From positions 9,150 to 73,149 of the forward strand of contig DAOULZ010000024.1 of the NCBI GenBank assembly GCA_034414575.1: 64,000 nucleotides of DNA. Direction: 5' to 3'. A program made the position numbers and the translations under genes. Shown piece by piece: positions 1,322 through 38,145 of this stretch (the first letter of the stretch is position 1; every line of letters starts with the position of its first letter). Origin of the DNA: Dehalococcoidales bacterium. Lineage in GTDB: Bacteria > Chloroflexota > Dehalococcoidia > Dehalococcoidales > UBA5760. Below the pieces are notes generated by a model. The model was not told the DNA's origin. It searched no databases and saw only the letters and a list, made by a program, of their open reading frames with translations.

Positions 1322-2839
1322 ATGGAAGTCGCACGAAATATATGTGCTAAGTATCTGGAAATGTTGAAGCCTAGAAAGATAATTAATAATCCTTCTGACG
1401 AAGAACTCAGGCAGTGGGCATTTGAAAAAGGGGGGGTAATAACTGAGTTTGGCAATCTGGCAGTAACCACAAATGTGCGTAATAGAATCGCCAAGTTTAC
1501 CGAGATAGTAATGGGCGACCTCTCAGCTGAGGATGACCATCTGTGTCGTCAGGTTTTGGAATACCTAAGGAATAAAGAAATGATACAGCTGGATCGGGTA
1601 ATGTGTCGGACCCCGGGTTTCAAGCGAAATTGTCGTGTATACGTTACTGCTAATTACCCGCGGATACCACTGATGTGGGGGAATACCCTTTTTCCTCATG
1701 AAGGTGGTAAGCCCGATTTTGTCACCATTACGGTTGCCGAGTGGCCGGAGAAGAAGACCCTTGTTTTTCCTGAGGCAGGTTTTACGCTGATTCTTGGTAG
1801 CGACTACAAGGGTGAGAACAAGAAGGCAATGCTGCGTCAGGTTATGTACCAGGCCAAGAAGCAAAGTAATCTTGGGCTGCATGCCGCCAGCAAGGTCATA
1901 AGAGTGTTTCGAGAAGGTAGGCTCAAGGACTACGGGTTCCTCCTCTTTGGTCTTAGTGGTACCGGGAAGACTGCGCTCTCTTGCCATTCTCACTGGTTGC
2001 GCCCGCCAGAGCGGGTGATAATCCGCCAGGACGACGTGGTTATCCTTAAGGCCGATGGCAGCGCTGTTGGCACCGAGGAGTCCTTCTACCTTAAAACAGA
2101 TGGACTTGAACCTACTTCTCAACCGCTTCTATATGCAGCGGCGATTAGCCCTCGTGCCATACTGGAAAACGTCTGTGTCGACCCAGAAACTGGCAGAGTT
2201 GATTTCTTCGACACCACACTTACCTCCAATGGTCGGGCAATGGTCAAGAGGCGCGATATTGCGTTCACTGATGATGACATAGACTTAGAAAAGGTTGACT
2301 TCGTGATATTCATCACCAGACGCTCTGATATCTTGCCTCCTGTAGCTCGGCTTTCACCGGAGTGGGCAGCGGCTGCCTTTATGCTAGGAGAGTCAGTGGA
2401 AACGTCGGCCGGTGACCCAACTCAGGCGGGTAAGGCATTAAGGGTTGTGGGTACAAATCCCTTCATCGTCGGCTCGGAGGAGGCAGAAGGCAATACCTTT
2501 CTTAATATCCTGAGAAATAACCCCGATATCCAGTGTTTTCTTTTGAACACGGGTAAGGTTGGTGGAGCCGATAGAGGGCAAAAGATAACGGTAAAGGACT
2601 CGGTAAAGATAATAGAAATGATAACCCGTGATAGCATCGTGTGGCAGAAGGATGATTGCTGGGGATATGAAGTGCCGGTTCAAATCCCGGGAATTGACTT
2701 GAGTCGATTCAAGCTGGACCGCTACTACGCCGAGGAACAAATACAGGAGATGTCCAAGGATCTGAAACAGGAAAGGCTGGAGTGGCTCTCTCAGTTTAAG
2801 CGGCTGGATAAGGATATCTTTAATACTATTATGCCTTAG
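1322..2839 (+). CDS. pckA: Phosphoenolpyruvate carboxykinase (ATP-dependent type)
   Basis: 505 aa. The kinase-1a P-loop FGLSGTGKTALS, the SNGRAMV block and the overall length fit ATP-PEPCK. Confidence 0.75.
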   Translation: MEVARNICAKYLEMLKPRKIINNPSDEELRQWAFEKGGVITEFGNLAVTTNVRNRIAKFTEIVMGDLSAEDDHLCRQVLEYLRNKEMIQLDRVMCRTPGFKRNCRVYVTANYPRIPLMWGNTLFPHEGGKPDFVTITVAEWPEKKTLVFPEAGFTLILGSDYKGENKKAMLRQVMYQAKKQSNLGLHAASKVIRVFREGRLKDYGFLLFGLSGTGKTALSCHSHWLRPPERVIIRQDDVVILKADGSAVGTEESFYLKTDGLEPTSQPLLYAAAISPRAILENVCVDPETGRVDFFDTTLTSNGRAMVKRRDIAFTDDDIDLEKVDFVIFITRRSDILPPVARLSPEWAAAAFMLGESVETSAGDPTQAGKALRVVGTNPFIVGSEEAEGNTFLNILRNNPDIQCFLLNTGKVGGADRGQKITVKDSVKIIEMITRDSIVWQKDDCWGYEVPVQIPGIDLSRFKLDRYYAEEQIQEMSKDLKQERLEWLSQFKRLDKDIFNTIMP

Positions 2840-3152
2840 AAATCACGATAGGGCTGGATATTTGCTGTGCCGTGCTTTCTATTATCGAAATAAATTAGAA
2901 TCGTAACTTACGCCTTAACCCTATATCCGTCGAATCCAACCCCCGGTTACTTGTTACCAACCAGGCAAGCCAGTTTTGCCGCCGGAGTCGGAGACGCTGA
3001 CGAGAGCTGGCCATATCTGGGAGATTTGGAAATCAGACCTGGCATTCTGAGAATGTAAATGTCCTGATCTCGAAATTGAACCTCTGGTACCTTGCCTTGA
3101 TTGGCATAGAACTTAGTTTGAGTATATCCCTATAATGGTTCGGGTAAGCCGG

Positions 3153-3181
3153 TTAATATTCGGTGGGAAAGCTGCTATAAT
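3153..3181 (+). promoter_or_regulatory. Possible sigma70-type promoter for the regulator gene
   Basis: TTAATA (3153-3158), 17-nt spacer, TATAAT (3176-3181), about 30 nt upstream of the ORF start. Confidence 0.3.
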
Positions 3182-3207
3182 AAACTAGGCTAGGATTACC
3201 CTGAGCC

Positions 3208-4005
3208 GTGTTTTATTGGGTTATGGTTGAGATACTGCGGAATAAAAGCTTGGCGACCAGATTTCAGGTGCTGGTGGCGGTAGCTGAGAGCGGGCCTAGT
3301 GTCCAGCAGCAGGAAATTGCTAAAAAGCTAGCTATCACCCCGCAGGCGATTTCGGATTACGTTGCCCAATTGGTAAAGGATGGGCTATTGACTGCAGACG
3401 GTCGTTCTCATTATAAGGTAACAGACGAGGGTGTGAACTGGATAGTTAGAATGCTGAGGGAGTTGAGAAGCTACACCAGTTCCGTGGAGAGGATTATCAC
3501 CAATATTTCGGTTTGTACCGCCATAGCCGAATGCGCATTGTCTAAAGGCGAGACTGTAGGTCTGAAGATGAAAGGCGGCCTGCTTTACGCCACTTCTAAG
3601 GTCACTAGTGGTGCCAGAGGAATAACTACATCTGATGCCCGCCCCGGTGAAGATGTAGGGGTAACCAGCATAGAGGGTATCGTAAAATTTAAACTCGGTG
3701 GGGTAACTATCCTTAGTGTGCCCGGTGTTGGCAAGGGAGGGTCCCGGAGCGTTGACCTTGCCAGACTGCGTCAGGAAGTGAAGGGCAAGTCTTTCGTTGG
3801 TGCTATAGGAATTGAGGCGCTGGTTACTTTAAGGCAGCTAAAAGTCGATTTCCATAGTTACGGTGTTCGGGAAGCCGCGATTGAAGCGGCTCACTGCGGT
3901 CTTCAGCCGGTAGTGGCCTGCACCGAAGGTGAAATCTCCGGCCTTATCAAAAGACTGGAGGAAGCGGATATCAGCTACCGGATAGCTGATATGGCAAGAA
4001 AATGA
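3208..4005 (+). CDS. Winged-helix DNA-binding protein with an uncharacterised ~190-aa C-terminal domain
   Basis: The N-terminal 70 aa (RFQVLVAVAESGPSVQQQEIAKKLAITPQAISDYVAQLVKDGLL) form a MarR/ArsR/Lrp-like wHTH. I do not recognise the remainder. The real start may be the ATG at 3223 (MVEILRNK...). Confidence 0.55.
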   Translation: MFYWVMVEILRNKSLATRFQVLVAVAESGPSVQQQEIAKKLAITPQAISDYVAQLVKDGLLTADGRSHYKVTDEGVNWIVRMLRELRSYTSSVERIITNISVCTAIAECALSKGETVGLKMKGGLLYATSKVTSGARGITTSDARPGEDVGVTSIEGIVKFKLGGVTILSVPGVGKGGSRSVDLARLRQEVKGKSFVGAIGIEALVTLRQLKVDFHSYGVREAAIEAAHCGLQPVVACTEGEISGLIKRLEEADISYRIADMARK

Positions 4006-4081
4006 GAGCTATTAGGCTATTTTAGCCCATCCTTATAGTTCGTAATTGCCTTTATTCTGACAACACAAGCTCTGTTCAGTA

Positions 4082-4111
4082 TTGACACAGATATTTTACC
4101 TCCGATATAAT
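4082..4111 (+). promoter_or_regulatory. Near-consensus sigma70-type promoter of the exported-protein/ECF operon
   Basis: TTGACA (4082-4087), 18-nt spacer, TATAAT (4106-4111). GGAGG at 4150-4154 precedes the GTG start at 4167. Confidence 0.6.
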
Positions 4112-4166
4112 CAAGTACAGTTGTTTATACGCTAGTAAAATTGATTAATGGAGGTACGTTTTAACT

Positions 4167-6164
4167 GTGAAGAGACGAAGGATTATAGCGTGTATTGTTA
4201 CCTTAGTAGTTGCCCTAACCGTGACTTCGGCATCGTTATTTATCGCTCCGGTTATGGCAGCGGACTCCTACCCCTTACAGACTATAGATCCAGAGGTAGC
4301 CAACGCTCTGGACTATCTCAGTGGCGAACAGGCCAGCGATGGCTCAATCGGTAGCTTTGTTGATTCAGCCTGGATAGCCATGGCGATTGCTGCGGCTGAT
4401 GATGACCCGCATGACTGGCAGGTGGGCGGAAACTCTATCGTTGATTACCTTGCCGCTAATGCCGGTAGTGCTGATTCTTCAACTGACTATTCGCGGATGA
4501 TACTGGCCATTGTCGCTTCCGGTGAGGATCCGACCAATTTCGGTAGCCGGGATTTCGTTTCTCTGCTGGAAGGAACCTATGATGACGCTAGTCAGCAGAT
4601 TGGTGAGGAGGCGTCTCTCAACGATGATATCTTTGGTGTCATGGCGCTAATCGCTGCGGGACGGAGTCAGAGTTATCAGATTATCACCGATGCGGTAGAT
4701 TTTATTATAGATAACCAGAATGGGGATGGTGGCTGGGCCTATTCGGTGGGGTTCGCCAGTGATGCTGACATGACTGGTGCGGCCGTGATGGCCTTAATTT
4801 CTGCCGGGGAGACAGTCGGCGCACCGATAGCTAGCGCCCTAGCCTATATTAAATCAACGCAGCAGGCTAACGGTGGTTTTTTGTCTTCTTGGGGTTCGAC
4901 TAATGCCGAGACTGATTCCTGGGCAATAAGTGCTATAGTGGCTTATGGGGAAGACCCCAACGGTACCGGCTGGACTTCCACCGGGGATAATACTCCGGTT
5001 GATGACCTCCTCACTTACCAGCAAGCGGGCGGTGAGTTCTATTACCAGGACGGTGTCCCCGGAGGCTGGCCGTCTCAGACAACGGCCAAAGCCATAATTG
5101 CCCTGCTGGGTGAGTTCTATCCGGTAGTAGCTATGGAGCCGACTGACGAAGAGGGAGTTACCGTTGACGTCAGGATCGAAGGGCAGAGTAGCACCATCTG
5201 GGATGGCAGCGTTACCGTTACGGAATCGACAGTTACGGCGGCCGATAGCGGCATCCCCTACTATTCTGAAGACCCGACGGCACTCGGAGCCCTGGACGAG
5301 GCATCTCAGGCTGGTGGTTTCGCCTATGAAGTGATTGACGAGTATGGGGAGGCGTTTGAGAGTTTGTATATAACTTCAATCGGGGGGGAGGCAGGCTCGA
5401 TGACCAGCGCCTGGCTCTATCGGGTGGACTATGTGAGTGTCATGGTGGGAGCCGGAGGTTTTACCCTTGGTGAGACAACGCCTCCTACTCCGCCGCACCG
5501 GGAAGTCCTGTTCTATTACATCACCGATAGTAACTGGGGGGCTCTGCCGCTCAAGGTCGAGGTTGACAATGACGAACCCGCGGTGGGCGAGCAATTTACC
5601 GTTACCGTAAGTGAGTTTAGCGATACTACCAATGACTGGTCGCCCTGTGAGGGGGCTACCGTCCACGCCGACACTAACTATACTACCGGGGCCCTGGGTA
5701 CGGTAGATATCACCGTGGACACGGATGCTACCCTTGAGATATATGCGGAGAAGGATAGCTTTATTCGCAGCAACCGGGTTGCCGTCACCGTGGGCACCGG
5801 TTCCGGAGTTAACGGAGAGGTAGGCTTGACCACCACCGTCATCCCGGCGATAGCCATTACGGTTGAGCCGGCTAGCTTGGATTTCGGTGAGTTGGGCCCC
5901 CGGGATACCAGTGCTCCTCAGGTAATAACCATAACCAATGTCGGGGCGTGGGATGTAGAGGTAACCTGTGAGGTAGCTGGGGTGGTGGGTGACCTCTATT
6001 TCGATGGGCTCAGGCTTAATGACGAGCTTTGGGACCTGTTTAGTGAAATAATTAACCGGGGTAATGATATGGATTGTTCCGCCACGCTCACCGTTCCGGA
6101 AAGCTATACCGGGGTAGGTGAGCAGAGCGGCACCGCCATCTTCTGGGCAGCGGAAGCCCCGTAG
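4167..6164 (+). CDS. Secreted multidomain protein: signal peptide, alpha/alpha-toroid (prenyltransferase/terpenoid-cyclase-like) repeats, DUF4430 (transcobalamin beta-domain-like) and two Ig-like domains
   Basis: Signal peptide MKRRRIIACIVTLVVALTVTSASLFIAPVMA/AD. Repeats of the QNGDGGWAY / QQANGGFLS / YQQAGGEFYY type span aa 41-320. Aa 330-452 (VTVDVRIEG...TALGALDEA...ITSIGG...SAWLYRVDYV...GAGGFTL...VLFYY) fit the DUF4430 pattern. Aa 556-665 are Ig-like (ITVEPASLDFGEL...VITITNVGAWDVEV). Confidence 0.65.
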   Translation: MKRRRIIACIVTLVVALTVTSASLFIAPVMAADSYPLQTIDPEVANALDYLSGEQASDGSIGSFVDSAWIAMAIAAADDDPHDWQVGGNSIVDYLAANAGSADSSTDYSRMILAIVASGEDPTNFGSRDFVSLLEGTYDDASQQIGEEASLNDDIFGVMALIAAGRSQSYQIITDAVDFIIDNQNGDGGWAYSVGFASDADMTGAAVMALISAGETVGAPIASALAYIKSTQQANGGFLSSWGSTNAETDSWAISAIVAYGEDPNGTGWTSTGDNTPVDDLLTYQQAGGEFYYQDGVPGGWPSQTTAKAIIALLGEFYPVVAMEPTDEEGVTVDVRIEGQSSTIWDGSVTVTESTVTAADSGIPYYSEDPTALGALDEASQAGGFAYEVIDEYGEAFESLYITSIGGEAGSMTSAWLYRVDYVSVMVGAGGFTLGETTPPTPPHREVLFYYITDSNWGALPLKVEVDNDEPAVGEQFTVTVSEFSDTTNDWSPCEGATVHADTNYTTGALGTVDITVDTDATLEIYAEKDSFIRSNRVAVTVGTGSGVNGEVGLTTTVIPAIAITVEPASLDFGELGPRDTSAPQVITITNVGAWDVEVTCEVAGVVGDLYFDGLRLNDELWDLFSEIINRGNDMDCSATLTVPESYTGVGEQSGTAIFWAAEAP

Positions 6165-6213: not shown

Positions 6214-6777
6214 TTGGGAGAGGAAACAGGTTTGTTGACTAGGAAGTTAAGGGTATTACTACCGCTTACCCTGCTGCTGGGGCTGTTACTGTTCCCCAGG
6301 GGAGTATTGGCTTCGGGAATAGGAGTCACGCCCGGTAGTCTCAGTCTAGAGGCTTACCCGCTGATGAAGACTTCCGGACCGATAGAGGTCCTTAATACCT
6401 CTGAGGAGCGGGCGTTATACCAGGTGTATGCCGAGGGTGAAGTTGGGGAATGGTGCAGTATTTCCCCAGAGGAATTCGTCCTGGAGGCTGGTGGCAGCCA
6501 GATAGTGGAAGTAACGGTAACGCCGCCACTGGGGACGCGCGGCGATTATGAGGCGACGATATGTGCCGTCTCTCTGATGTCGGCATCGGAGCTGAAGGTC
6601 GGCTGCGGGGTTAAAATACCACTCCAGGTTTCGGTAGGCTTGGCACCTCCAGCCGGAAGGGTAGCCGAATTTATGGCGGGGTCGCCGCTGGTGTGGTTAA
6701 TTATTGCGGTAGTTCTGGCAATCGCTATTCCTATTACCCTCGCTGTTCGCAGGAGAAGGAGGCGCCGTGAGATTTAG
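6214..6777 (+). CDS. Exported Ig-like-fold protein with a C-terminal TM anchor and poly-Arg stop-transfer tail
   Basis: Signal-like N-terminus (LRVLLPLTLLLGLLLFPRGVLA), a beta-sandwich-like core (GIGVTPGSLSLEA...IEVLNTSEE...VEVTVTPP) and a C-terminal TM segment followed by RRRRRRRE. The 3' end overlaps the next gene by 11 nt. Confidence 0.5.
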   Translation: MGEETGLLTRKLRVLLPLTLLLGLLLFPRGVLASGIGVTPGSLSLEAYPLMKTSGPIEVLNTSEERALYQVYAEGEVGEWCSISPEEFVLEAGGSQIVEVTVTPPLGTRGDYEATICAVSLMSASELKVGCGVKIPLQVSVGLAPPAGRVAEFMAGSPLVWLIIAVVLAIAIPITLAVRRRRRRREI

Positions 6778-7810
6778 GCGGGTTATCAGCCTGTTTGCCA
6801 TAACCCTGCTGGTAGCCCTGCTCTGTAGCTGTGCTGGCGGCGTATCGGGAGGGTGGGAAGGTGATGTCGCCTCCCCCGACGATGGTGGCCCTGGCCCGGC
6901 TGAGAGCCCCCCCGCCCAGGAGGAAGCCGGCAGTCCGGCTGACTTGGGCCCCTCAACCAGAATCATAGTTACCCGTGGTTTCAGTGGGCCGGCCATTTTG
7001 ACGGAGACCGTGGCCATTGTCGAGGACACTACGGCGCTGGAAGCTCTGAAGATGGTGGCCAGTGTCGAGACTAAGTACGGGGGTGGCTTTGTCAGCTCGA
7101 TAGAGGGTATCAGCTCTGAGTATGAGGGGGAGGAAAAGGCGAAGGAGGACTGGTTTTTCTATATAAACGGCATTTCGCTCAGCACCGGCGCCGGTGGCTA
7201 TATCCTCCAGGATGGGGATAGCCAGCACTGGGACTATCACGACTGGAGCTTCCGCCAGTTTATTCCGGCCATAATCGGCGACTTTCCGGAGCCGTTTGTT
7301 CATGGTGTCAGGGGGGTGGTTTATCCTACCATCGTTGCCTATCAGAATGGCTGGCAGGAGGCGGCGGTACTGATAGCTGATAGACTGGAGGGGGTGGGTG
7401 TCCAGAATGTTAGCTGCCGGAATTTTGAGGAGCTTACGGCGGTGGATAAGGAGGCTAGCAATCTGATCTTGGTGGGCACCAGTGACTTTGCCCCGGTCGG
7501 GGAACTTAACGAGCCCTGGAGCCGCCTCGGCTTCTACTGTCACTTCGAAGAGGGGGGGCTTGCAGTCTTCGACGCGGCGGGTGAGCTGGTTAGTGAATAC
7601 AGTGAGGGTACCGGAATCATTCAGGCGACCCAGAGTATATGGAACCCGAAGGGGGTCGGGGCCGGCGAGAATGTGGTCTGGCTGGTCTCCGGATTAGATG
7701 AGCCCGGGGTGAGGGCTGCCGTGGACGTCCTGGTTAATCACCCCGATGATTATAAGTACGGCTGTGCCGTAGTAATTACTGAAGGAGAGACACTGAAGGT
7801 GCCCCGGTAG
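6767..7810 (+). CDS. Probable lipoprotein with an N-terminal DUF4430 (transcobalamin-like) domain and an unknown ~190-aa C-terminal domain
   Basis: Signal/lipobox-like ITLLVALLCSCAGG and a Pro/Gly/Glu-rich linker. Aa 64-160 (IIVTRGFSG...TTALEALK...YGGGFVSSIEGI...EDWFFYINGISLSTGAGGYILQDGDSQHWDY) are a textbook DUF4430 pattern. Confidence 0.6.
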   Translation: MRFRRVISLFAITLLVALLCSCAGGVSGGWEGDVASPDDGGPGPAESPPAQEEAGSPADLGPSTRIIVTRGFSGPAILTETVAIVEDTTALEALKMVASVETKYGGGFVSSIEGISSEYEGEEKAKEDWFFYINGISLSTGAGGYILQDGDSQHWDYHDWSFRQFIPAIIGDFPEPFVHGVRGVVYPTIVAYQNGWQEAAVLIADRLEGVGVQNVSCRNFEELTAVDKEASNLILVGTSDFAPVGELNEPWSRLGFYCHFEEGGLAVFDAAGELVSEYSEGTGIIQATQSIWNPKGVGAGENVVWLVSGLDEPGVRAAVDVLVNHPDDYKYGCAVVITEGETLKVPR

Positions 7811-8745
7811 TGAGGAGCTTTAGAAGCTTTAGATATCAAGATAAAGGTACCCCAGTCCACCGGCTTAATCCCTTCTCCAAGCTGGGGTGGATTACCAGCG
7901 TCCTCGTCCTTTCCCTGGTGCTTGATAGCCCCCTCTTTCTGCTGGCGGTGTTTCTGTCGACGCTGCCATTGGTGAAGGCGGCCCGGGTGTGGTCGGAGTG
8001 GCTGTCCGCTATGAGGCTGGCGCTGTATCTTTCGGCGGCGGTCATTCTCATCAATGCCCTGGTGAGTTCTCACGGCGCTCATGTCCTGTTTGAGGCTCCG
8101 TTTCACCTGCCACTGGTAGGGGTCCCGATGATAACGCTGGAAGCCATCATCTACGGGGTTGTCATGTCGCTCCGGCTGCTGTCAATAATCTCTGCCTTTG
8201 CCATACTTACCTTCACCGTTAACCCGGATGAGATGATGCTGGCGATGATAAAGATGAGGTTACCCTACAAATCGGTGCTGGTAGTTACGCTTTCCACTAG
8301 GTTTATTCCCACCCTGCTTGATGATGTCGAGCGCATTACCGATGTCCAGCGGTCGAGGGGTCTCGAGCTGGACAAGGGCAGATTAGCACGGAGAATAAAA
8401 AGCCGTGCCTCTATCGTGACCGTCCTGCTAGCTAATTCCCTTGATAGAGCAGTTCAGGTCGCCGAAGCTATGGAATCACGGGCCTTCGGTACCGGGCGAA
8501 ATCGCACTTTTTACCGCGACATAGGCTTCAGCCTGACCGATGTTACCACCCTGGTATTTTCTCTACTGCCGGCGGCGCTGGGCATCTTTATGGGGCTCAA
8601 GGGATACGGACAGTATCAGTATTACCCTACCGTGTCGTGGATAAACCCTACCGGCTGGGAGGCGTGGTTGCTGGTGTTAATGATAGTGCTGCTGGTGGCA
8701 CAGCTGCCGCTGGCATATCTGAAGCGGAGGGTTGACCTTGATTAG
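7810..8745 (+). CDS. ecfT: ECF transporter transmembrane (T) component, CbiQ/EcfT family
   Basis: Polytopic 311-aa protein with the EcfT C-terminal coupling-helix region (TDVQRSRGLEL...AEAMESRAFG). The GTG start overlaps the upstream stop codon (7808-7810). Confidence 0.85.
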   Translation: MRSFRSFRYQDKGTPVHRLNPFSKLGWITSVLVLSLVLDSPLFLLAVFLSTLPLVKAARVWSEWLSAMRLALYLSAAVILINALVSSHGAHVLFEAPFHLPLVGVPMITLEAIIYGVVMSLRLLSIISAFAILTFTVNPDEMMLAMIKMRLPYKSVLVVTLSTRFIPTLLDDVERITDVQRSRGLELDKGRLARRIKSRASIVTVLLANSLDRAVQVAEAMESRAFGTGRNRTFYRDIGFSLTDVTTLVFSLLPAALGIFMGLKGYGQYQYYPTVSWINPTGWEAWLLVLMIVLLVAQLPLAYLKRRVDLD

Positions 8746-10417
8746 AATCGAAAACCTGACCTTCTTTTATAGCAACATTAATCATCCTGCCCTCAAGGAC
8801 ATTAGTCTGGAAATCGGGGATGGGGAGTTTGTTCTGGTGACCGGGCCCTCCGGGGGTGGTAAGTCCAGCCTGTGCCGCTGCCTTAATGGTCTCATACCCC
8901 ACTTTTACGGCGGAAAGATTTACGGCCGGGTACTGGTTGCCGGGATGGATACGCTCGAACACTCTACCAAAGAACTGGCGACCAAGGTCGGCTTCGTGTT
9001 TCAGGACCCGGAGAGTCAGCTGGTGAGCATGGATGTGGAGCGGGAGGTTGCTTTTGGTCTGGAGAACCTCGGCTTTCCCCGGGACCTTATCGCCAAGCGG
9101 GTGGAGGAATCACTGGATACGCTCGGTATCGCCGGCCTCCGTTACCGGCAGCTCAGTGAGCTCTCCGGTGGGGAGAAGCAGAAGGTTGCCATTGCCTCGG
9201 TACTGGCGCTTCACCCCAGCGTTCTAATACTGGATGAGCCGACTTCAGAGCTGGACCCTAAGGGGGCGGAAGAGGTGCTGTCGGTAATAACCCGCCTCAA
9301 CGATGAACTCGGCCTTACGGTAATACTGATCGAGCACCGGCTCGATAGGGTGCTTCAGTATGCCGACCGATTAATAGTCCTGAGTGAGGGGATGGTGGCT
9401 ATTGACGGGGGGGTCAGAGATATCATAACTAATCGCTACCCCGAGCTTTCCAGAATTGGCGTTGGGGTTCCCCCCATGATCCGCCTGATTCAGGAGTTGC
9501 GTAATAAGGGCATCAAGATAGATAAAGTCCCTCTTACCGTTAAGGAAGGGCGGGCTATACTTAGGAAAACCTTAGATAAAACAACGCCTGTTCGAGATAC
9601 TGAGGGGGGTAACGGACGGGGGGTCGCTGATACTCTGGTCGAGGTCAAGAGGCTCTGGTATACCTACCCGAGTGGACTCCTTGCCCTGAGAAACGTGAAT
9701 CTGAGGATCGGCGAGGCGGAGTTCGTCACCATCATGGGGCGAAATGCCTCGGGCAAAACCACGCTGGCCAAGCATTTTAACCGTCTTCTGATACCGACCA
9801 AGGGCAGAATCAGGGTTGGCGGCCTTGATACCAGAGAGGCGACGATTGCGGAGCTGGCGAGAAAGGTCGGCTTCGTTTTTCAGAACCCTAACGATCATCT
9901 CTTCGCTGACACCGTCCATGATGAGATTGCCTTTACCCTGAAGAATTTGGGCTTTAGCCGCGAGGAGATAAGACTGCGCACCGCTGAGATGCTGGAGAGG
10001 TTTCAACTCACCGAATATCAGGATCAATATCCGCGTTCCTTGAGTGGTGGGGAAAAGCAGCGGGTGGCTCTGGCTTCGGTCCTGGCGACGAGACCCAAGG
10101 TTTTAATTCTTGATGAACCGACCCGGGGGATGGATTATCGGCTGAAAAGCGAGCTGATGCGGTTCCTGGACGAATACCGTTCCGAAGGCAACACGGTGGT
10201 TTTGGTAACCCACGATGTCGAGATAGTAGCTGAATATGCCGACCGGGTTATCCTCCTGAGTGAAGGCAAGGTTATCGTCGATGGGGAGAAACACCAGGTT
10301 CTATCTCAGGCTCTCCTTTTTTCACCGCAAATAAACCGCCTGGCACAATCATTCGAACGGTACGGCGTCTCTAACAGGATACTGACCGTTAGCGAGGCTC
10401 TAGGTATTCTGTCGTGA
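8732..10417 (+). CDS. ecfA: Fused tandem ECF/ABC ATPase (EcfA-EcfA')
   Basis: Two complete ABC domains. The first has GPSGGGKSS, LSGGEKQKVAIA and ILDEPTSELD. The second has GRNASGKTT, LSGGEKQRVALA and ILDEPTRGMD. Confidence 0.9.
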   Translation: MTLIRIENLTFFYSNINHPALKDISLEIGDGEFVLVTGPSGGGKSSLCRCLNGLIPHFYGGKIYGRVLVAGMDTLEHSTKELATKVGFVFQDPESQLVSMDVEREVAFGLENLGFPRDLIAKRVEESLDTLGIAGLRYRQLSELSGGEKQKVAIASVLALHPSVLILDEPTSELDPKGAEEVLSVITRLNDELGLTVILIEHRLDRVLQYADRLIVLSEGMVAIDGGVRDIITNRYPELSRIGVGVPPMIRLIQELRNKGIKIDKVPLTVKEGRAILRKTLDKTTPVRDTEGGNGRGVADTLVEVKRLWYTYPSGLLALRNVNLRIGEAEFVTIMGRNASGKTTLAKHFNRLLIPTKGRIRVGGLDTREATIAELARKVGFVFQNPNDHLFADTVHDEIAFTLKNLGFSREEIRLRTAEMLERFQLTEYQDQYPRSLSGGEKQRVALASVLATRPKVLILDEPTRGMDYRLKSELMRFLDEYRSEGNTVVLVTHDVEIVAEYADRVILLSEGKVIVDGEKHQVLSQALLFSPQINRLAQSFERYGVSNRILTVSEALGILS

Positions 10418-11157
10418 AACCGAGATATATCTTTCTGTTAGTGATTATCGGGCTGTGCGCCGCCGCTTTTGCAGCCCCGGTATTCAGTCCCTCGCCGCTT
10501 GATATCCTGCAGAACTGGGGGCTTATGTCGGTTATTCTGGTTGCCCTGACCATCGGTGCCTTCTTCTTTGAATTCGAGGGGAGCGCTATCGGCTCCAAGG
10601 AAATAGCCCTTATCGGCATACTGGGTACCGTTTCCGCCGTGGTCAGAATTCCCTTTGCCGCCGTCCCCAGTGTCCAGCCGTGCACCTACCTGATAATATG
10701 CGCGGGGTACGTCTTCGGCCCGCTGGCTGGATTTATGGTGGGGGCAATAACGGCCCTTATCTCTAACTTCTTTCTCGGACAGGGTCCCTGGACCATCTAT
10801 CAGATGTTTGCCTGGGGGATGGCGGGGGTCAGTGCCAGTTACCTGAAGCGTCTCAATCCGGGTCGGGGAAAGCTCTTGGCTTTTGGTATTCTCTGGGGTT
10901 ACCTCTTTGGCCTCATAGTCAATACTTGGTTCTGGGCCGCCTTCATCTACCCCCTGACACCGAGGACTTTCATTGTATCTCAGCTTAATAGCCTCTGGTT
11001 CGATACTGCCCATGCTGTGGCCAATGCCATCTTCCTGGGACTACTGGGTAAGAAGACCATCGATATTCTGGAGAGGTTTCATAAGAAATTCCAGTGGCAG
11101 GCACTCGGGCAAAGCCTGACGAATGCGGTTGTTGTGCCTAAAGCCGTCCTAAGGTGA
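10414..11157 (+). CDS. ECF transporter substrate-capture (S) component, substrate unknown
   Basis: 247 aa with about 6 TM segments and a typical S-component layout. The start overlaps the ecfA stop in GTGA (10414-10417). I cannot assign the subfamily by eye. Confidence 0.65.
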   Translation: MKPRYIFLLVIIGLCAAAFAAPVFSPSPLDILQNWGLMSVILVALTIGAFFFEFEGSAIGSKEIALIGILGTVSAVVRIPFAAVPSVQPCTYLIICAGYVFGPLAGFMVGAITALISNFFLGQGPWTIYQMFAWGMAGVSASYLKRLNPGRGKLLAFGILWGYLFGLIVNTWFWAAFIYPLTPRTFIVSQLNSLWFDTAHAVANAIFLGLLGKKTIDILERFHKKFQWQALGQSLTNAVVVPKAVLR

Positions 11158-11277: not shown

Positions 11278-11964
11278 GTGACTGATAAATCTATGAGCTA
11301 TATTGTATCCTGGAGTGGTGGTAAGGAAAGTTGCCTAACTTTATATGAGGCGATGGGCAAAGGGTATAAAATTTCTCACCTGGTGAACTTCATTTCCGAG
11401 GAATCTCATAGGGTAAGTTTTCATGGCACAGAGGCTCGGCTGATTCAGCTTCAAAGCCAAGCCATAGGGATTCCTCTTTTGCAGAAAAGGGCCGGCTGGG
11501 GTAAGTATGAGCAAGATTTTAAGGATGCAGTGCGTAGTCTAATTCCTGGTGGTGTGGAGGGCATGGTTTTTGGTGATATTTATCTTCAAGAGCACAAAGA
11601 TTGGGTTGAGAAAGTTTGTGCTGAACTAGGTATTGAGGCGATTGAGCCACTCTGGGGCAGGAACACGGAAGAGGTATTACTTAGCTTCATCAATAGCGGG
11701 TTCGAAGCGGTTATCGTCAGTGCCCAATCTGAACTGGTCGACGAAGATTGGATTGGTCAGCGAGTAGATAAGGCATTCATGGAGTACCTTGGGAGCAGGA
11801 ACATTGATCTGTGTGGGGAGAATGGCGAGTACCATACCCTTGTGGTTAACGGGCCTATTTTCCGGCGACAAATAAAACTGATTGAGAGTAGGACTATTGC
11901 TAGGGACCGCTATTGGTTCTTGAATACTGTTAGATATAAGCTTGGTCGGGGTGAGAGGACTTGA
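11278..11964 (+). CDS. PP-loop ATP pyrophosphatase of the Dph6/MJ0570-like family
   Basis: SWSGGKES PP-loop (SGGKDS type) at the N-terminus, about 225 aa. The start may be the ATG at 11293. The last 22 nt overlap tRNA-Pro on the opposite strand. Confidence 0.6.
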   Translation: MTDKSMSYIVSWSGGKESCLTLYEAMGKGYKISHLVNFISEESHRVSFHGTEARLIQLQSQAIGIPLLQKRAGWGKYEQDFKDAVRSLIPGGVEGMVFGDIYLQEHKDWVEKVCAELGIEAIEPLWGRNTEEVLLSFINSGFEAVIVSAQSELVDEDWIGQRVDKAFMEYLGSRNIDLCGENGEYHTLVVNGPIFRRQIKLIESRTIARDRYWFLNTVRYKLGRGERT

Positions 11965-12019
11965 ACCTCCGACCTCAGCGTCCCAAACGCTGCGCGCTAG
12001 CCAACTGCGCCACACCCCG
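11943..12019 (-). tRNA. tRNA-Pro (anticodon UGG), CCA encoded
   Basis: The reverse complement reads CGGGGTG-TG-GCGC-AGTTGGCTA-GCGC-G-CAGCG-TTTGGGA-CGCTG-AGGTC-GGAGG-TTCAAGT-CCTCT-CACCCCG-A-CCA. The cloverleaf is complete with a TGG anticodon. Confidence 0.9.
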
Positions 12020-12079: not shown

Positions 12080-12814
12080 TCATTCCCTGCAGTCGGGGCA
12101 GACCTCAAAGGCATCCGGGGACAAGCCGGCTATCTTGGTGATGTACGCTAGTTGCCTTTCTGGAGCCCAGTACTTCCCGCACTTAGCGCACTTCTTCAGC
12201 TTGAACTCCATGGTTACATGGGGCATGGTAATTGTCCTGGTATCACCAGAGTCCTCAAAGCTAATCGCCCCGGTGGGGCAAACGTAGGCGCAGGAACCAC
12301 AACCGATACAGGCCTCGGAGAAGTCGTTGAAGGGGGTGGTCATCCGTCGGTCAACACCCCGATTAGCTAGGCTGATCGCCGAGACCCCTACCATCTCTTG
12401 GCACACCCGGTTACACAAGGCACAGAGAATACATTTCTGATTACCCTCTTCGGGTTTGAAGCGTGAGCCGTCAATACCCAGCCTTTTAGCCCAGTCCTGA
12501 ATGACGTCAGAATCAGGGCACCGGGCCAAAAGTAGCTTAATCACCATGCGGCGGACATTTATAACTCGCTCTGTGTCGGTCTTTACCGTGAGCCCCTCCT
12601 CCACTGGGTAGAGACAGGAGGCCACCAGCCTCTCCCGCCCACGGTGGGTGGTAATCTCCACCATGCAGAGACGGCAGGCACCGTAGGGAGCCACTTCTTC
12701 GTGATAGCAGAGCGCCGGGATGTCAATGCCGTTCTCCCTGGCTACCTCAAGGACTACCTTTCCTGCCTCCGCCTGAATTTCCCGCCCGTCAATATTCAGT
12801 GTCACCATCATCAC
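12080..12814 (-). CDS. NuoG/HydA-N-terminal-like Fe-S protein (2Fe-2S plus several 4Fe-4S) with no catalytic domain
   Basis: N-terminal 2Fe-2S ferredoxin (CYHEEVAPYGACRLC), then CILCALCNRVC and CIGCGSCAYVCPTG clusters, then a C-terminal CAKCG...CPDC Cys4 motif. Only 244 aa, and tRNA-Pro lies 60 nt downstream, so nothing is missing. Confidence 0.75.
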   Translation of the reverse strand: MMMVTLNIDGREIQAEAGKVVLEVARENGIDIPALCYHEEVAPYGACRLCMVEITTHRGRERLVASCLYPVEEGLTVKTDTERVINVRRMVIKLLLARCPDSDVIQDWAKRLGIDGSRFKPEEGNQKCILCALCNRVCQEMVGVSAISLANRGVDRRMTTPFNDFSEACIGCGSCAYVCPTGAISFEDSGDTRTITMPHVTMEFKLKKCAKCGKYWAPERQLAYITKIAGLSPDAFEVCPDCRE

Positions 12815-12820
12815 ATACCT

Positions 12821-14677
12821 TTACCTTACTTCGATGGCTCCCAGCTTACACACGTCATAGCAAGCCCCGCATTTGATACACTTCTCCTGGTCCAGGATAA
12901 CTGGCTTCTTCTTCCCTCTGGAGGTTATAGCTTCCTGGGGGCAAGCCTTGATACAGAGCCCGCACCCCGGGCATTTCTCCTCAATAATCTGGTAGGTAAT
13001 CAGGGCTTTACAGACACCGGCGGGGCATTTCTTGTCTTTGATGTGAGCCTGGTATTCATCTCGGAAGTAGCGCAGCGTGGTTAGCACCGGATTGGGAGCC
13101 GTGCCGCCCAGAGCGCACAGCGCTCCGTCAGCCAGGGCGGCTGAGAGCTGCTCCAAAAGTTCAATATCCCCTTCCTTACCTCTACCTTCGGTAATATCGC
13201 CCAGTACTTCCCGCATCCGCTTTAACCCCTCACGGCAGGGAACGCATTTACCGCATGATTCCCCCTCGAGGAAGTTGATGAAGTACTTGGCAATGTCCAC
13301 CATGCAGTTATCCTCGTCCGTGACAATCATGCCACCGGAACCCATCATGGAGCCAGCCTGGTTGAGTTCGTCAAAATCCACCGGTAGGTCGAGCAGGCTC
13401 TCCGGGATGATCCCTCCGGAGGGGCCGCCTGTCTGGACTCCCTTGAATTTCTTGCCCCCGGGAATACCGCCCCCAATATCATAGATTATCTTTCTCAGGG
13501 TTATCCCCATGGGCACTTCCACGAGGCCGGTATTATTAACCTTGCCCACCAGGGAGAAAATCTTGGTGCCCTTACTATTCTCGGTGCCCGTCTTGGCGTA
13601 CCAGTCGGCCCCCTTATTGATAATTATCGGGACATTGGCCCAGGTCTCTACATTGTTTAGGGTGGTGGGCATATCCCACAGCCCCTTCTCTACAGTGTGG
13701 ATATATTTTGCCTTTGGCTCACCGGGTTTACCCTCCAGCGAGGCCATCAGCGCCGATGACTCACCACAGATAAAGGCTCCGCCGCCTCGGTTTATCCTGA
13801 TGCTGAAATCAAAACCGGAGTCGAGAATATTTTTACCCAGCAGACCGTACTCTTCAGCCTGCTTGATGGCCAGTTGAATATTCTTTACCGCTAGCGGGTA
13901 CTCGTAGCGGACGTAGACGTAACCATGGTGACTACCAATAGCGTAAGCCCCGATTATCATCCCCTCGACGACGCTGTGCGGGTTACCTTCCACCAGGCTC
14001 CTATCCATATAAGCCCCGGGGTCGCCCTCATCGGCGTTGCAGATGACGTAGCGGGTATCACCCTTGGCCTTGCGGCAGGATTCCCACTTAACGCCAGTGG
14101 GGAAGCCACCGCCACCCCGCCCGCGCAGGCCGGATTTCTTGACCTCACTGATTATGTCTTCCGAGGACATTTTAAAGAGCGCCTTAGCTAGGGCCGCGTA
14201 GCCACCAACCGCCAGATAGTCATCAATTGAGGTCGGGTCAATATAGCCGTTGTTCCCAAAGACAAGCCGCTTTTGCAGTTTGTAGAAGGGAACTTCAGAC
14301 TCGTGGACTAGCTTCTTACCGGTATCAGGGTCGGTATAGAGCAGACGGTCAATAATTTTACCATCAAGAATGGTCTCGGAGATTATCTCGGGGACATCCT
14401 CCACCCGGACTCGCTGGTAGAAAATATCCTTCGGTCTGATGACTACCAGTGGGCCTCGTTCGCAGAAACCGTGACAGCCGGTAGCCCTGATATCGACCTT
14501 GTCCCCTAAACCGCGCTGCTCAATTTCTTGCTGGAAAGCGGCGGTTACCTTCTCGCAGCCATAGGCGTGGCATCCGGTACCGCTACAGATTGTAATACAC
14601 AGCCTATCGGGGTCGCGCTGGCTTATTATTGATTCTCTCAGAGTTTCCAGTTCTCTAGGAGAGCTTAATCTCTTCAA
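12821..14677 (-). CDS. NuoF/HydB/HndC-like NAD(P)H-binding FMN Fe-S flavoprotein
   Basis: 618 aa. It has an N-terminal thioredoxin-like 2Fe-2S ([11 protein letters not shown]...[10 protein letters not shown]), the [20 protein letters not shown] site, [12 protein letters not shown] (N3 cluster) and C-terminal 2x[4Fe-4S] ([23 protein letters not shown]). Confidence 0.85.
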
Positions 14678-14698
14678 CAGCTAGTCCTTCCCTCATAG

Positions 14699-15169
14699 TT
14701 AACTATAGTTTGCCAGAACATCTTTGACCTTCTCGGTCTTCATCTGCCCGTGGTATTCTCCATCGACGATTACCACCGGCCCCAGGGCGCAAGCCCCGAC
14801 ACAGTTAACGGTTTCCAGGGTGAACTTGAGGTCTTCGGTAGTCTCCCCGGACTTGATAGCCAGGTCTCGCTCTACGGCCTCCAGGACCTTCACTGCACCC
14901 CTGACGTGGCAGGCAGTCCCCAGGCAGACGTTGATCAGGTGGCGCCCCCGTGGTGTTAGACTCAAAGCCTTAAAAAAGGTGGCGACACTATAGACCTGAC
15001 TGAGGGGGACACCGAGACCTCGGCTGACCTCCTCCAGCGCCTCTCGGGGCAAGTAATTATGTTCCGCCTGAACATCCTGTAGGATAGCTACCAGCATGCC
15101 CTTGTCATGCTGATATTTACCTAATATTGACTCTACACTGTCAGCTAAAGGCTTTTCTCCTCGGTGCAT
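14699..15169 (-). CDS. NuoE/HydC/HndA-like 2Fe-2S thioredoxin-fold subunit
   Basis: 156 aa. The CLGTACHVRG...CVGACALGPV pattern is characteristic of NuoE-type subunits. Confidence 0.85.
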   Translation of the reverse strand: MHRGEKPLADSVESILGKYQHDKGMLVAILQDVQAEHNYLPREALEEVSRGLGVPLSQVYSVATFFKALSLTPRGRHLINVCLGTACHVRGAVKVLEAVERDLAIKSGETTEDLKFTLETVNCVGACALGPVVIVDGEYHGQMKTEKVKDVLANYS

Positions 15170-16086
15170 GCTGCCTTCTCCTTGAGCTTAGCGTACTCCC
15201 TGTTTACCCTATCCTGAATCTCTTTAATCAACTCTGCGGATAGATGCCGGAACCTTCCCTGCAGCTTCAGATAGTCCTCAACCGGCCTTAGCTTGGGGAC
15301 ATCAATACTTAATCTATAATTACCATTCTCAATCTCGTATAGAGGGAATATCCCGGTTTCAACCGCTAAGCGGCCTAATTTGACACTTAAATCGGTAGGG
15401 CACCGCCAGCCAGTAGGGCAAACCGATAGGATATGAATATAGGCTGGTCCAGGTACAGCTACTCCCTTCTTTACCTTGGCCATTAAATCAAAGGGATAGC
15501 TGGGACAGGCGGTAGCGACATATGGTATGTCATGGGCGGCCGCAATTGCTGGCAGATTCTTCTTCCAGGTGACCTGTCCGATACTGACCTTGCCCGCCGG
15601 GGCTGTAGTCGTCGAAGCACCAAACGGGGTCGCCGAAGAACGCTGTATTCCGGTATTCATGTAGGCTTCATTATCGAAGCAGATATAAAGAAAGTCGTGA
15701 CCTCTCTCCAGGGCCCCGGATAATGCCTGAAGTCCAATGTCACTGGTGCCGCCGTCGCCAGCTATGGCCACCACGTTTATCTTATTGTCGGGGCGCTTGC
15801 CCTTCTTCGTAAGGGCCTTTAAGCCGGCCTCAACGCCTGAAGCTACGGCAGCCGCATTCTCAAACAGGGTATGAATCCAGGGCAGGCGCCAGGAAGTCTC
15901 CGGAAATGGTGAAGCAATCACCTCCATACAGCCGGTGGCATTAACAATTATCACATTGCGCCCCAGCGCCTTACAGGCCTGTCTTACGGCCAAAGCTTCG
16001 CCGCAACCGATACAGGCCCGGTGACCAGGGGCGAAGTTCTCCTCCCTGGTTACCAGCTTGGGCACAAAAACAGAATACTTTTCCAT
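15145..16086 (-). CDS. porB: Pyruvate:ferredoxin (2-oxoacid) oxidoreductase beta subunit (TPP-binding)
   Basis: GHRACIGCGEALA N-terminus and the GDGGTSDIG TPP motif, 313 aa. Confidence 0.85.
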   Translation of the reverse strand: MEKYSVFVPKLVTREENFAPGHRACIGCGEALAVRQACKALGRNVIIVNATGCMEVIASPFPETSWRLPWIHTLFENAAAVASGVEAGLKALTKKGKRPDNKINVVAIAGDGGTSDIGLQALSGALERGHDFLYICFDNEAYMNTGIQRSSATPFGASTTTAPAGKVSIGQVTWKKNLPAIAAAHDIPYVATACPSYPFDLMAKVKKGVAVPGPAYIHILSVCPTGWRCPTDLSVKLGRLAVETGIFPLYEIENGNYRLSIDVPKLRPVEDYLKLQGRFRHLSAELIKEIQDRVNREYAKLKEKAACTEEKSL

Positions 16087-17261
16087 TACTCCCTCACCCC
16101 GAACATCTCAAATTCCTGCTCGCTACCAGTCTGTGCAATCTCAATACCACGGTTAATTATCTCTCTGAAGCCTTCCGGGGAAATATCTCTGCCTCCTAGG
16201 CCGCCAACAAAACCAATTACCTTGGGCTTTTTATCTAATCCATACAAGGCGGACCTAATCTCAGAGGAGACTGGTCCCCCTGGTCCGCCAAAGGAGAGTG
16301 CTCTATCTAGGATGATGAGCACCTCGGCGTCCCTAACGGCACTGCGGATTTCGTCAAAGGGGAAGGGACGCCATAACCGGAGCTTTATTAGCCCTACTTT
16401 GTTGCCTTCTTCCCGGACGGTGTCGATGGCACTCATAGCCGTCTCGCTAAAGCTACCCATGGCTAACAAGAGCACCTTAGCCTTTTCACACCGGTAGCAT
16501 TCTAGCGGAGAGTATGAGCGACCGAAGACGTTACCAAACTCCTGCCAGCACTGCGAAATTACCTCTTTGGATGCCTCCAGGCTCATCTGCTGGGCTTTTT
16601 TGACCTCAGGGTATATGTAGGGCGGGCCGAAAGCCCCCATGCTTACTGGCCGGTCAGGATCCAGAGGCAGTGGGTACTTGCATGGAGGCAGAAACCTCGC
16701 TACGTCACTCGGTTCCGGTATATATATTGGTTCAATGACGTGTGTCAGGTGAAATCCATCCAGGTGAACCATTACCGGCAGCAAAACCCTCTGGTCTTCA
16801 GCAATACGGAAGGCACAGAGCACGTTGTCAAAAGTCTCCTGACCATTGGCGGCGAATATCTGAATCCAGCCGGTATCGCGAACAGACATGACATCTGAGT
16901 GGTCACCCCAGATACTTATCGGCGCCGATAAAGCTCGATTAGCCACCGCCATAACTATCGGGAAGCGCATCGACGAGGCCACATATAACGCCTCGTGCAT
17001 GAGCTCCAACCCCTGAGCAGCAGTGGCGGTAAAGGTTCTGGCGCCGACGGCGGCAGAACCAAGACAGGCACTCATCGCCGAATGTTCCGATTCAACGGGA
17101 ATAAAGGAGGCCTCCAGTTCACCATTGGCTACCAGCTCTGCGATATCCTCAACGATGTGAGTCTGAGGAGTAATAGGATAGGCGGATACCACATCCACGT
17201 TAGCTAGCTTAACGGCTATGGCAACCGATCGTGAAACCTCGATACCTATCCTTTGTGCCAT
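16086..17261 (-). CDS. porA: Pyruvate:ferredoxin oxidoreductase alpha subunit
   Basis: Typical PorA N-terminus MAQRIGIEVSRSVAIAVKLANVDVVSAYPITPQT. I use the internal ATG at 17261. It overlaps the porD stop in TAATG, and the longer ORF to 17327 is read-through into porD. Confidence 0.85.
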   Translation of the reverse strand: MAQRIGIEVSRSVAIAVKLANVDVVSAYPITPQTHIVEDIAELVANGELEASFIPVESEHSAMSACLGSAAVGARTFTATAAQGLELMHEALYVASSMRFPIVMAVANRALSAPISIWGDHSDVMSVRDTGWIQIFAANGQETFDNVLCAFRIAEDQRVLLPVMVHLDGFHLTHVIEPIYIPEPSDVARFLPPCKYPLPLDPDRPVSMGAFGPPYIYPEVKKAQQMSLEASKEVISQCWQEFGNVFGRSYSPLECYRCEKAKVLLLAMGSFSETAMSAIDTVREEGNKVGLIKLRLWRPFPFDEIRSAVRDAEVLIILDRALSFGGPGGPVSSEIRSALYGLDKKPKVIGFVGGLGGRDISPEGFREIINRGIEIAQTGSEQEFEMFGVRE

Positions 17262-17557
17262 TACTCCTCCTCCTCTTCCACCATGGTAATGGCTCTTGTC
17301 CAGCACTCGCGGGCACAGATACCGCATCCCTTGCAGTAGAACAGATTGGCTTCGTAAAATCCTTCTTGGTTCGGCTCAATACACCCCTCGGGGCAAAAGA
17401 TAGAGCAAAGACCGCACTTTATACACCGGCTGTGCTCATAGGTTGGCTTCTGGGTTCGCCAATCCCCGGTCTGGTTCTGGCTGGCGCTACCGGCCTCGGT
17501 TATTATGGAACCAATCTCAAGTTCTTTCCAGGTTATTTCATTTCCGGGTTTGGTCAC
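17261..17557 (-). CDS. porD: Pyruvate:ferredoxin oxidoreductase delta subunit (2x[4Fe-4S] ferredoxin)
   Basis: 98 aa with CIKCGLCSIFCP and CKGCGICARECW motifs. Confidence 0.85.
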   Translation of the reverse strand: MTKPGNEITWKELEIGSIITEAGSASQNQTGDWRTQKPTYEHSRCIKCGLCSIFCPEGCIEPNQEGFYEANLFYCKGCGICARECWTRAITMVEEEEE

Positions 17558-18155: not shown

Positions 18156-18228
18156 CGCCCCTGGAGCGACTTGAACGCTCGCACCCAGCTCCGGAGGCTG
18201 GTGCTCTATCCACCTGAGCTACAGGGGC
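18156..18228 (-). tRNA. tRNA-Arg (anticodon CCG), CCA not encoded
   Basis: The reverse complement reads GCCCCTG-TA-GCTC-AGGTGGATA-GAGC-A-CCAGC-CTCCGGA-GCTGG-GTGC-GAGCG-TTCAAGT-CGCTC-CAGGGGC-G. It folds as a cloverleaf with a short 4-nt variable loop. Confidence 0.85.
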
Positions 18229-19547: not shown

Positions 19548-19589
19548 ACTCTACTTAAAGTCCTTTTCAATATTAGAATCTATCGCCAG

Positions 19590-22741: not shown

Positions 22742-22766
22742 TTCTTACCACCTCCATAAAACACGC

Positions 22767-24166: not shown

Positions 24167-24183
24167 AGCTAACTCCTTTAAAT

Positions 24184-24765: not shown

Positions 24766-24774
24766 ACGACACCC

Positions 24775-25245: not shown

Positions 25246-25264
25246 TTTTGGCCTCTCCTTTCTA

Positions 25265-37192: not shown

Positions 37193-37206
37193 TGCCGTCC
37201 GCTCCT

Positions 37207-38133: not shown

Positions 38134-38145
38134 CTCTTCCCTCCT

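Follow-up and report, generated by a model that had tools for sequence, protein, structure and literature searches.

Does a bacterium with a cobamide-dependent enzyme use, at its surface, a counterpart of the proteins that carry vitamin B12 in mammals? The question is raised by a locus in a 64,000-nucleotide stretch of a Dehalococcoidales genome (GenBank assembly GCA_034414575.1, contig DAOULZ010000024.1, positions 9,150 to 73,149 of the forward strand), referred to here as the window; all coordinates are positions within it. The open reading frame (ORF) at 4167..6164 (+) encodes a 665-aa protein with a signal peptide, here called TCL (transcobalamin-like surface protein), and lies upstream of genes for an energy-coupling factor (ECF) importer. 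A first interpretation made from the DNA alone (the sequence-only reading) had suggested that TCL recapitulates the two-domain architecture of the mammalian cobalamin carriers. Taken together, the data described below suggest that TCL is probably a secreted cell-surface binder or scavenger of cobamides (B12-type corrinoids and probably their precursors, such as cobinamide) that feeds an importer of the ECF-CbrT type.

The region originally singled out, 4287-5522, corresponds to aa 41-452 of the ORF, and the four repeat motifs quoted for it are all present in the translation (DGSIGSF, aa 58-64; QNGDGGWAY, aa 184-192; QQANGGFLS, aa 232-240; and YQQAGGEFYY, aa 284-293), as is the acidic linker. 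The protein begins with a predicted signal peptide (aa 1-31; 4167..4259, +) that has a KRRR n-region, a hydrophobic core and a VMA/A site. The AlphaFold2 (AF2) model has a signal helix at aa 2-24, with low predicted local distance difference test (pLDDT) values at aa 23-28. The toroid (aa 41-320; 4287..5126, +) is made of prenyltransferase/terpene-cyclase-type repeats and is recognized by Pfam as SQHop_cyclase_C at aa 158-238 (30.8 bits, cutoff 26.1, E 2e-7). It is joined by the interdomain linker VAMEPTDEEG (aa 321-330; 5127..5156, +), of which the acidic stretch EPTDEEG occupies aa 324-330 and where pLDDT dips to ~73-74, to an SLBB/DUF4430 beta domain (aa 331-452; 5157..5522, +). The Pfam match of the latter to DUF4430 (aa 387-434, 23.0 bits, E 1e-4) falls just under the cutoff of 23.8, and AF2 models a mixed beta domain at aa 331-452, in agreement with the DUF4430-like domain that had been placed after the linker. 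Precomputed PF14478 matches are present in many TCL relatives. Two further Ig-like domains had been proposed for aa 460-665, and two beta-sandwiches are indeed modelled there: a CarboxypepD_reg-like domain (aa 460-542; 5544..5792, +), with CarboxypepD_reg matches at the equivalent position of homologues, and a Cep192/HYDIN-type Ig-like domain (aa 564-663; 5856..6155, +), with Cep192_D4 and HYDIN Ig matches in homologues.

TCL is a member of a large family. There are hundreds of homologues of ~655 aa in metagenome-assembled genomes (MAGs) of Dehalococcoidales and other Dehalococcoidia, named in databases as 'prenyltransferase/squalene oxidase repeat-containing' or 'DUF4430 domain-containing' proteins, and homologues are also found in Bathyarchaeia, Thermoplasmata, Halobacteriota and Patescibacteria. 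At E<=1e-30 a profile of the two domains matched the representatives of 1,358 clusters formed at 50% identity, toroid-only proteins included; of the top 150 matches, roughly one in three was counted by hand as covering both domains.

The predicted structure carries the likeness to the B12 carriers. The full-length AF2 model, made from an alignment of 91 homologues, has a mean pLDDT of 90.7, and a second model, of aa 33-455 only, has a pLDDT of 92.7 and a predicted template modelling score (pTM) of 0.75. As had been proposed, aa 41-320 are predicted to fold as an alpha/alpha toroid, with 12 helices from aa 42 to 313 (assigned by DSSP) in an alpha6/alpha6 arrangement. When the full-length model was compared with the PDB using Foldseek, the top 11 matches were transcobalamin, haptocorrin and intrinsic factor. 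These alignments run through both domains (~450-470 columns, E 4e-12 to 3e-10) and are far above chance. The next-ranked matches (small squalene-hopene cyclases, drimenyl-diphosphate synthase and farnesyltransferase beta) covered the toroid only, and the model of aa 33-455 gave the same ranking. The barrel-linker-beta order of the mammalian carriers is therefore recovered in both models, and the carriers on which superposition had been suggested, transcobalamin and intrinsic factor, are with haptocorrin the best structural matches in the PDB. The isolated beta domain overlays on the beta domain of apo transcobalamin (5no0) with a TM-score (TMt) of 0.65 and a root mean square deviation (rmsd) of 4.8 Å.

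The beta domain is also related to transcobalamin at the sequence level. By hhalign, aa 376-417 of TCL align with residues 341-378 of transcobalamin (probability 83%, E 9e-6), a segment that contributes contacts to cobalamin. The human transcobalamin sequence used was identical to PDB 7qbf_A, and the beta domain alone was detected when the full alignment was compared with it. A protein search with human transcobalamin for bacterial bridging sequences gave 207 matches, of which the best 120 were all transcobalamin-2, came from unnamed assemblies or mammals and were at least 70% identical. When TCL itself was searched against PDB sequences, all matches were to repeats of the squalene-cyclase type, at aa ~146-264 (E 1e-11), and transcobalamin was not among them.

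The genes around TCL encode an importer. Upstream is a putative operon regulator with a MarR-type winged helix and a DUF7839 domain (3208..4005, +; Pfam DUF7839 E 6.6e-24, MarR_2 E 2e-8). Downstream, TCL is followed by p187 (6214..6777, +), a protein with a signal peptide, a beta-sandwich, a C-terminal transmembrane helix and a poly-Arg tail, which shows weak PACE-CTERM S-layer-like and Cep192_D6 matches and is a putative membrane anchor or partner of TCL. Next comes a second extracytoplasmic SLBB/DUF4430 protein of 347 aa with a lipoprotein-like signal and an unassigned C-terminal domain (6767..7810, +; Pfam DUF4430 E 2.7e-14), for which a PDB sequence search found no relative. The run ends with the transmembrane component EcfT of the CbiQ family (7810..8745, +; Pfam CbiQ E 2.6e-29), a fused EcfA-EcfA' ATPase with two ABC domains (8732..10417, +; NCBIfam ECF_ATPase_1 E 1.9e-148, ECF_ATPase_2 E 4.4e-142) and an ECF S component (10414..11157, +; Pfam ECF_trnsprt E 6e-14). 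The sequence-only reading had linked TCL to a prokaryote-specific class of transporter, and this is what lies downstream on the same strand. The S component is CbrT-like: its sole significant match among PDB sequences (E<=10) is 6fnp_A, with aa 63-229 aligned to residues 11-179 of 182 (E 1.5e-10). This structure is CbrT of the Lactobacillus delbrueckii B12 ECF transporter, and ECF-CbrT carries cobalamin and cobinamide (PMC5997447).

The arrangement is conserved. The order regulator, TCL, p187, DUF4430 protein, EcfT, EcfAA' and EcfS is complete or nearly so in ~30 Dehalococcoidia loci. A Halobacteriota MAG (L027) has it apart from the regulator, an unclassified archaeal MAG (L033) lacks p187 as well, and part of the operon is retained in a Bathyarchaeia locus (L032). 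The 347-aa DUF4430 protein is kept in the operon across loci. Most Dehalococcoidia loci have a homologue of the regulator upstream of TCL, and it is usually encoded on the same strand. In seven loci (L046, L047, L048, L054, L063, L067 and L073) the toroid and the beta plus Ig segments are separate, with a gap between them, and two tandem toroid-only copies occur in others (L065, L076, L077 and L080 being also noted). The gapped matches suggest split genes, some of them in Dehalococcoidia, comparable to the alpha/beta pair of L. sakei discussed below.

p187 appears to be tied to one particular domain of TCL. Across loci L001-L080 the last beta-sandwich of TCL and the p187 gene were both present in 39 and both absent in 24, and eight were discordant (Fisher p 1e-11, phylogeny being ignored). 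The gene lies directly downstream of TCL in Dehalococcoidia, the Halobacteriota MAG and Patescibacteria, and in Patescibacteria the pair persists with no ECF genes nearby by tblastn. There is no significant BLASTP match between the last Ig-like domain and p187, and thus no detectable paralogy. These results suggest that the last Ig-like domain and p187 are a docking or anchoring pair, and the co-occurrence across loci leads us to propose that p187 acts at the membrane as the tether or receiver of TCL. In one Patescibacteria-like MAG (L058, 10437-13785) the genes after the riboswitch-controlled TCL-p187 pair are not those of an ECF module: tblastn detects an ABC ATPase, and a membrane permease and a large accessory protein are recognizable by eye.

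A link to B12 that is independent of architecture comes from gene regulation and from the S component. Six Patescibacteria homologues (30-34% identity) each have a same-strand riboswitch of the cobalamin clan ~80-300 nt upstream, every one scoring at or above the Rfam gathering threshold. The family is RF00174 in four of these loci (L053, L058, L059 and L070) and RF01689 (AdoCbl-II) in two (L062 and L068). These homologues share with TCL four domains that Pfam detects in them: SQHop_cyclase_C, DUF4430, CarboxypepD_reg-like and Cep192/HYDIN-type Ig, the last of which was not detected in L053. Taken with the likeness of the S component to CbrT, the riboswitches at these six homologues point to cobamides as the ligand. 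The riboswitch occupies the position that is held by the MarR/DUF7839 regulator in most Dehalococcoidia loci, and the regulator may fill its role there, possibly responding to cobamides.

That the organism makes use of a cobamide follows from the presence in the window of an adenosylcobalamin-dependent enzyme, methylmalonyl-CoA mutase. Its large subunit is encoded at 40691-42310 (-) and its B12-binding subunit, in which DGHDRG corresponds to the DxHxxG motif, at 40259-40678 (-). The mutase belongs to a methylmalonyl-CoA pathway cluster (35667-42879, -) that also contains malate dehydrogenase and a two-subunit Fe-S fumarase. Within the cluster are a carboxyltransferase 5S subunit (38146-39621, -), a glyoxalase-type protein that from its context is a probable methylmalonyl-CoA epimerase (39805-40275, -) and a 95-aa ORF (42592-42879, -) that by eye is a MeaB/ArgK-type GTPase fragment, possibly truncated.

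A relay can be proposed from these data. The SLBB/DUF4430 beta domain and the alpha6/alpha6 toroid of TCL would capture a corrinoid outside the cell, presumably holding it between them, with the two C-terminal beta-sandwich domains serving as a stalk and the last of them docking on membrane-anchored p187. The ligand would then be passed to the CbrT-like S component, possibly through the second DUF4430 lipoprotein, and imported by the dedicated EcfT/EcfA-A' module.

Several results weigh against TCL being a cobamide binder of the transcobalamin kind. Overlaid on ligand-bound transcobalamin, intrinsic factor and haptocorrin, the AF2 models, which are ligand-free, give an rmsd of ~24 Å (TMt 0.39-0.49). 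We read this value as an overlay of the toroid only, with the beta domain apparently shifted by roughly the width of the toroid. Because the modelled beta domain is far from its ligand-bound position, the cleft of transcobalamin is not reproduced in these models. In ligand-free transcobalamin and intrinsic factor the domains are mobile and assemble around the ligand, and mobility of this kind would also account for the split alpha and beta genes in some relatives. At the sequence level, PF01122 was absent at E<=0.01 from the window protein and eight relatives. A comparison of the alpha sub-alignment with 22 mammalian transcobalamins by local and global hhalign found nothing (probability 0.8%), both profiles being of low diversity (Neff ~2). 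The proposed homology to the B12 carriers therefore stands for the beta domain in both sequence and fold, but for the alpha domain it is argued from fold and architecture only. Neither at the gathering threshold nor in a permissive scan of 2700-4400 does the window show a cobalamin riboswitch, and none was found in the eight Dehalococcoidia and archaeal loci checked. Finally, a literature search found no paper measuring ligand binding by bacterial toroid plus SLBB proteins, and the sole experimental report found for a homologous system, lsa1836-1840 of L. sakei, links it to heme uptake, B12 being outside its tests.

The L. sakei report is the basis of the main alternative, namely that the cargo of the TCL system is heme or some other tetrapyrrole without a corrin ring, in which case a porphyrin would be held by the toroid and SLBB domain and imported by the ECF module. 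In L. sakei, genes for an ECF S component, a T component and a fused A-A' ATPase share an operon with genes for two secreted proteins, one like the alpha and one like the beta domain of transcobalamin; deleting this operon cut uptake of 57Fe-heme 5- to 8-fold and complementation restored uptake. ECF-type heme importers are also known elsewhere, for example in Staphylococcus lugdunensis (PMC7299338). However, the L. sakei work left B12 out, and the assignment of heme to its two secreted proteins rests on docking. The elements upstream of the six Patescibacteria homologues are cobalamin riboswitches and not iron or heme regulators, the only sequence relative of the S component in the PDB is specific for B12, and no heme-utilization genes flank the operon in the window. 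We therefore consider heme an unlikely cargo.

A ligand that is not a tetrapyrrole at all would be in keeping with other features of the family. The toroid might bind isoprenoid lipids, quinones, glycans or peptides, with DUF4430 as a generic partner for binding soluble ligands. By sequence the alpha domain is nearest to squalene-cyclase/prenyltransferase repeats, relatives show weak TED_complement matches, and the profile search yields thousands of secreted toroid proteins with varied added domains. It has also been pointed out that, in archaea which make B12 themselves, members of the family might take up some other metabolite (Burroughs et al., 2007; PMC1796856). The combination of the two domains nevertheless fits the B12 carriers best, and the riboswitches and the CbrT likeness favour cobamides. 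In addition, where a thioester would require CGEQ, the window protein reads SGEQ, with no cysteine. There is, in our judgement, only a small chance that the cargo lies outside the tetrapyrroles.

Conservation of residues across the family is informative about both domains. Among 29 sequences from Dehalococcoidia, archaea and Patescibacteria, the toroid residues N152, D153, D154, Q184, G188, G189, W190, D199, T203, Q232, G236, G237, F238 and W252 are kept, as are R336, E338, G339, Y387, W416, Y418 and G428 of the beta domain. W416 and Y418 are thus retained from Dehalococcoidia to archaea and Patescibacteria, and Y401 is present in 75-90% of sequences. The stretch aa 199-202 resembles the DxDD motif of class II terpene cyclases: it is D-V-D-D in 69 of 91 close relatives, D-A-D-M (D199-A-D201-M202) in the window protein and D-T-N-M in Patescibacteria. 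Of this motif only D199 and T203 are kept family-wide, and D201 and D202 are not. In neither the 91- nor the 29-sequence alignment is there an invariant Cys or His in aa 41-320 that could belong to the Asp/Cys/His triad of a prenyltransferase zinc site. Cyclase repeats are, then, the nearest relatives by sequence, but the catalytic DxDD is broken in TCL. That TCL is an extracellular enzyme of the class II terpene cyclase or prenyltransferase type is therefore most improbable: the above-threshold SQHop_cyclase_C match and the D-V-D-D of close relatives speak for it, but the motif is not intact in the window protein or in Patescibacteria, TCL has one 280-aa toroid and no beta-gamma didomain, Sec secretion would put isoprenoid diphosphate substrates out of reach, zinc ligands are lacking, and the operon encodes an importer and not a biosynthetic pathway.

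The same stretch may hold a trace of ancestry. The family motif S-D-[VA]-D-[DM]-T-[AG]-A-A (aa 198-206, nt 4758-4784) resembles H-S-V-D-T-A-A of transcobalamin, the stretch around the cobalt-coordinating His173, a resemblance that alignment does not confirm. As it is also like the DxDDTA of class II cyclases, the motif may be a vestige that links the cyclases, the TCL family and transcobalamin.

If TCL is a cobamide binder, as we think likely, it has consequences for the way in which ECF transport is understood. ECF transporters are defined as operating without extracytoplasmic binding proteins, and an extracellular binder working with an ECF importer would extend this textbook model. It would also make a prokaryotic relative of the three mammalian carriers accessible to experiment. 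Dehalococcoidia need corrinoids as cofactors and many Patescibacteria can synthesize very little for themselves; the way in which such organisms capture cobamides shapes community cross-feeding and the performance of bioremediation. A broader picture can be drawn, which we put forward tentatively and regard as more doubtful than not. Here, the system would be a widespread ECF variant with an extracellular capture relay of binder, SLBB lipoprotein and anchor. It would hold the corrinoid in a geometry unlike that of mammalian transcobalamin, as hinted by the AF2 models, represent the living prokaryotic stock from which the animal carriers came, and be a main cobamide route of auxotrophic Dehalococcoidia, Bathyarchaeia and Patescibacteria.

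The remainder of the window contains a number of recognizable genes. A Dph6-like ATP pyrophosphatase gene (11278-11964) comes after the ECF operon and is directly followed by a tRNA gene (11946-12019, -); a second tRNA gene is at 18156-18228 (-). NuoE/NuoF/HoxU-like genes occupy 12080-15169, and the pyruvate:ferredoxin oxidoreductase genes porAB (15145-17327) are near an archaeal/V-type ATP synthase operon (18912-27289, -) in which subunits I, C, A, B and D were identified. There is a tmRNA gene at 33087-33439 (-, 160 bits). A T-box leader (55175-55451, 100 bits) lies ahead of the gene for anthranilate synthase component I and of others that probably also belong to tryptophan biosynthesis (55466-63447), so that 55175-63447 looks like a T-box-controlled trp operon.

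How does the TCL system compare with those already known? Class II terpene cyclases and prenyltransferase beta subunits (SQHop_cyclase_C, Prenyltrans) share with it the alpha/alpha toroid and the Q-x-x-D-G-G-W/F repeat loops, and are the best sequence-level relatives of aa 146-264. TCL differs from them in being secreted as a single toroid, with no intact DxDD and no zinc ligands, and in being fused to SLBB and Ig-like domains. Class II cyclases are beta-gamma double toroids that are cytoplasmic or membrane-monotopic, whereas TCL has a Sec signal peptide.

The mammalian carriers transcobalamin, intrinsic factor and haptocorrin (PF01122) have a 12-helix alpha6/alpha6 barrel, a linker and a ~110-aa beta domain in the same order and of similar sizes, and are related to TCL by the sequence of the beta domain and by structure, in which they are its best matches. 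In contrast with these carriers, TCL matches neither PF01122 nor the alpha domain of transcobalamin by sequence, its domains are packed differently in the models (the ~24 Å rmsd above), it has two added beta-sandwich domains and its toroid retains terpene-cyclase-type sequence repeats. The carriers deliver to an endocytic receptor, whereas TCL is paired with an ECF importer to which it is predicted to deliver.

ECF-CbrT of L. delbrueckii (PDB 6FNP) has an S component that is homologous over nearly its full length and the same EcfT/EcfA/EcfA' motor. The L. delbrueckii system is of group II, in which, on our reading of the general definition of that group, the ECF module is presumably shared among S components. 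The module in the window is dedicated and three extracytoplasmic proteins are encoded beside it. This is in contrast with ECF-CbrT reconstituted in liposomes, which transported cobalamin without any added extracytoplasmic binding protein (PMC5997447). The operon lsa1836-1840 of L. sakei is alike in placing ECF S, fused A-A' ATPase and T components in one operon with secreted proteins that resemble the alpha and beta parts of transcobalamin, but there the two parts are separate proteins and the experiments pointed to heme. BtuH of Bacteroides, considered as a possible DUF4430 protein, was dropped from the comparison, since neither transcobalamin nor a DUF is named in the paper on BtuH.

The closest precedent is the definition of the SLBB superfamily by Burroughs, Balaji, Iyer & Aravind (2007, Biol Direct 2:4; PMC1796856). 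For its transcobalamin-like clade they described bacterial as well as eukaryotic proteins in which the SLBB domain is fused to an alpha/alpha toroid (N-terminal to it in Desulfotomaculum), frequent addition of Ig-fold domains, and operons with CbiO-like and CbiQ-like genes and often a second paralogous SLBB protein. They proposed that these proteins probably serve to scavenge B12 or B12 precursors, and that animals may have gained their carriers from Gram-positive bacteria. All of the protein features are found in TCL (signal peptide, toroid N-terminal to a transcobalamin-clade SLBB domain, Ig-fold domains), and the operon features are found around it (second SLBB protein, 6767-7810; CbiQ, 7810-8745; double ABC ATPase, 8732-10417). 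TCL therefore belongs to a class that was already described and computationally predicted, the concept having been published in 2007. The examples given then were mainly from Firmicutes with a few archaea, whereas the window protein is from Dehalococcoidales. The present data add to that account the conserved anchor-like partner p187, the CbrT-like S component, the association with riboswitches in Patescibacteria, the spread to Dehalococcoidia, Bathyarchaeia and Patescibacteria, and a predicted domain packing unlike that of ligand-bound transcobalamin. Their value lies in confirming the earlier prediction and in placing it in a wider context of riboswitches, importer, anchor partner and distribution.

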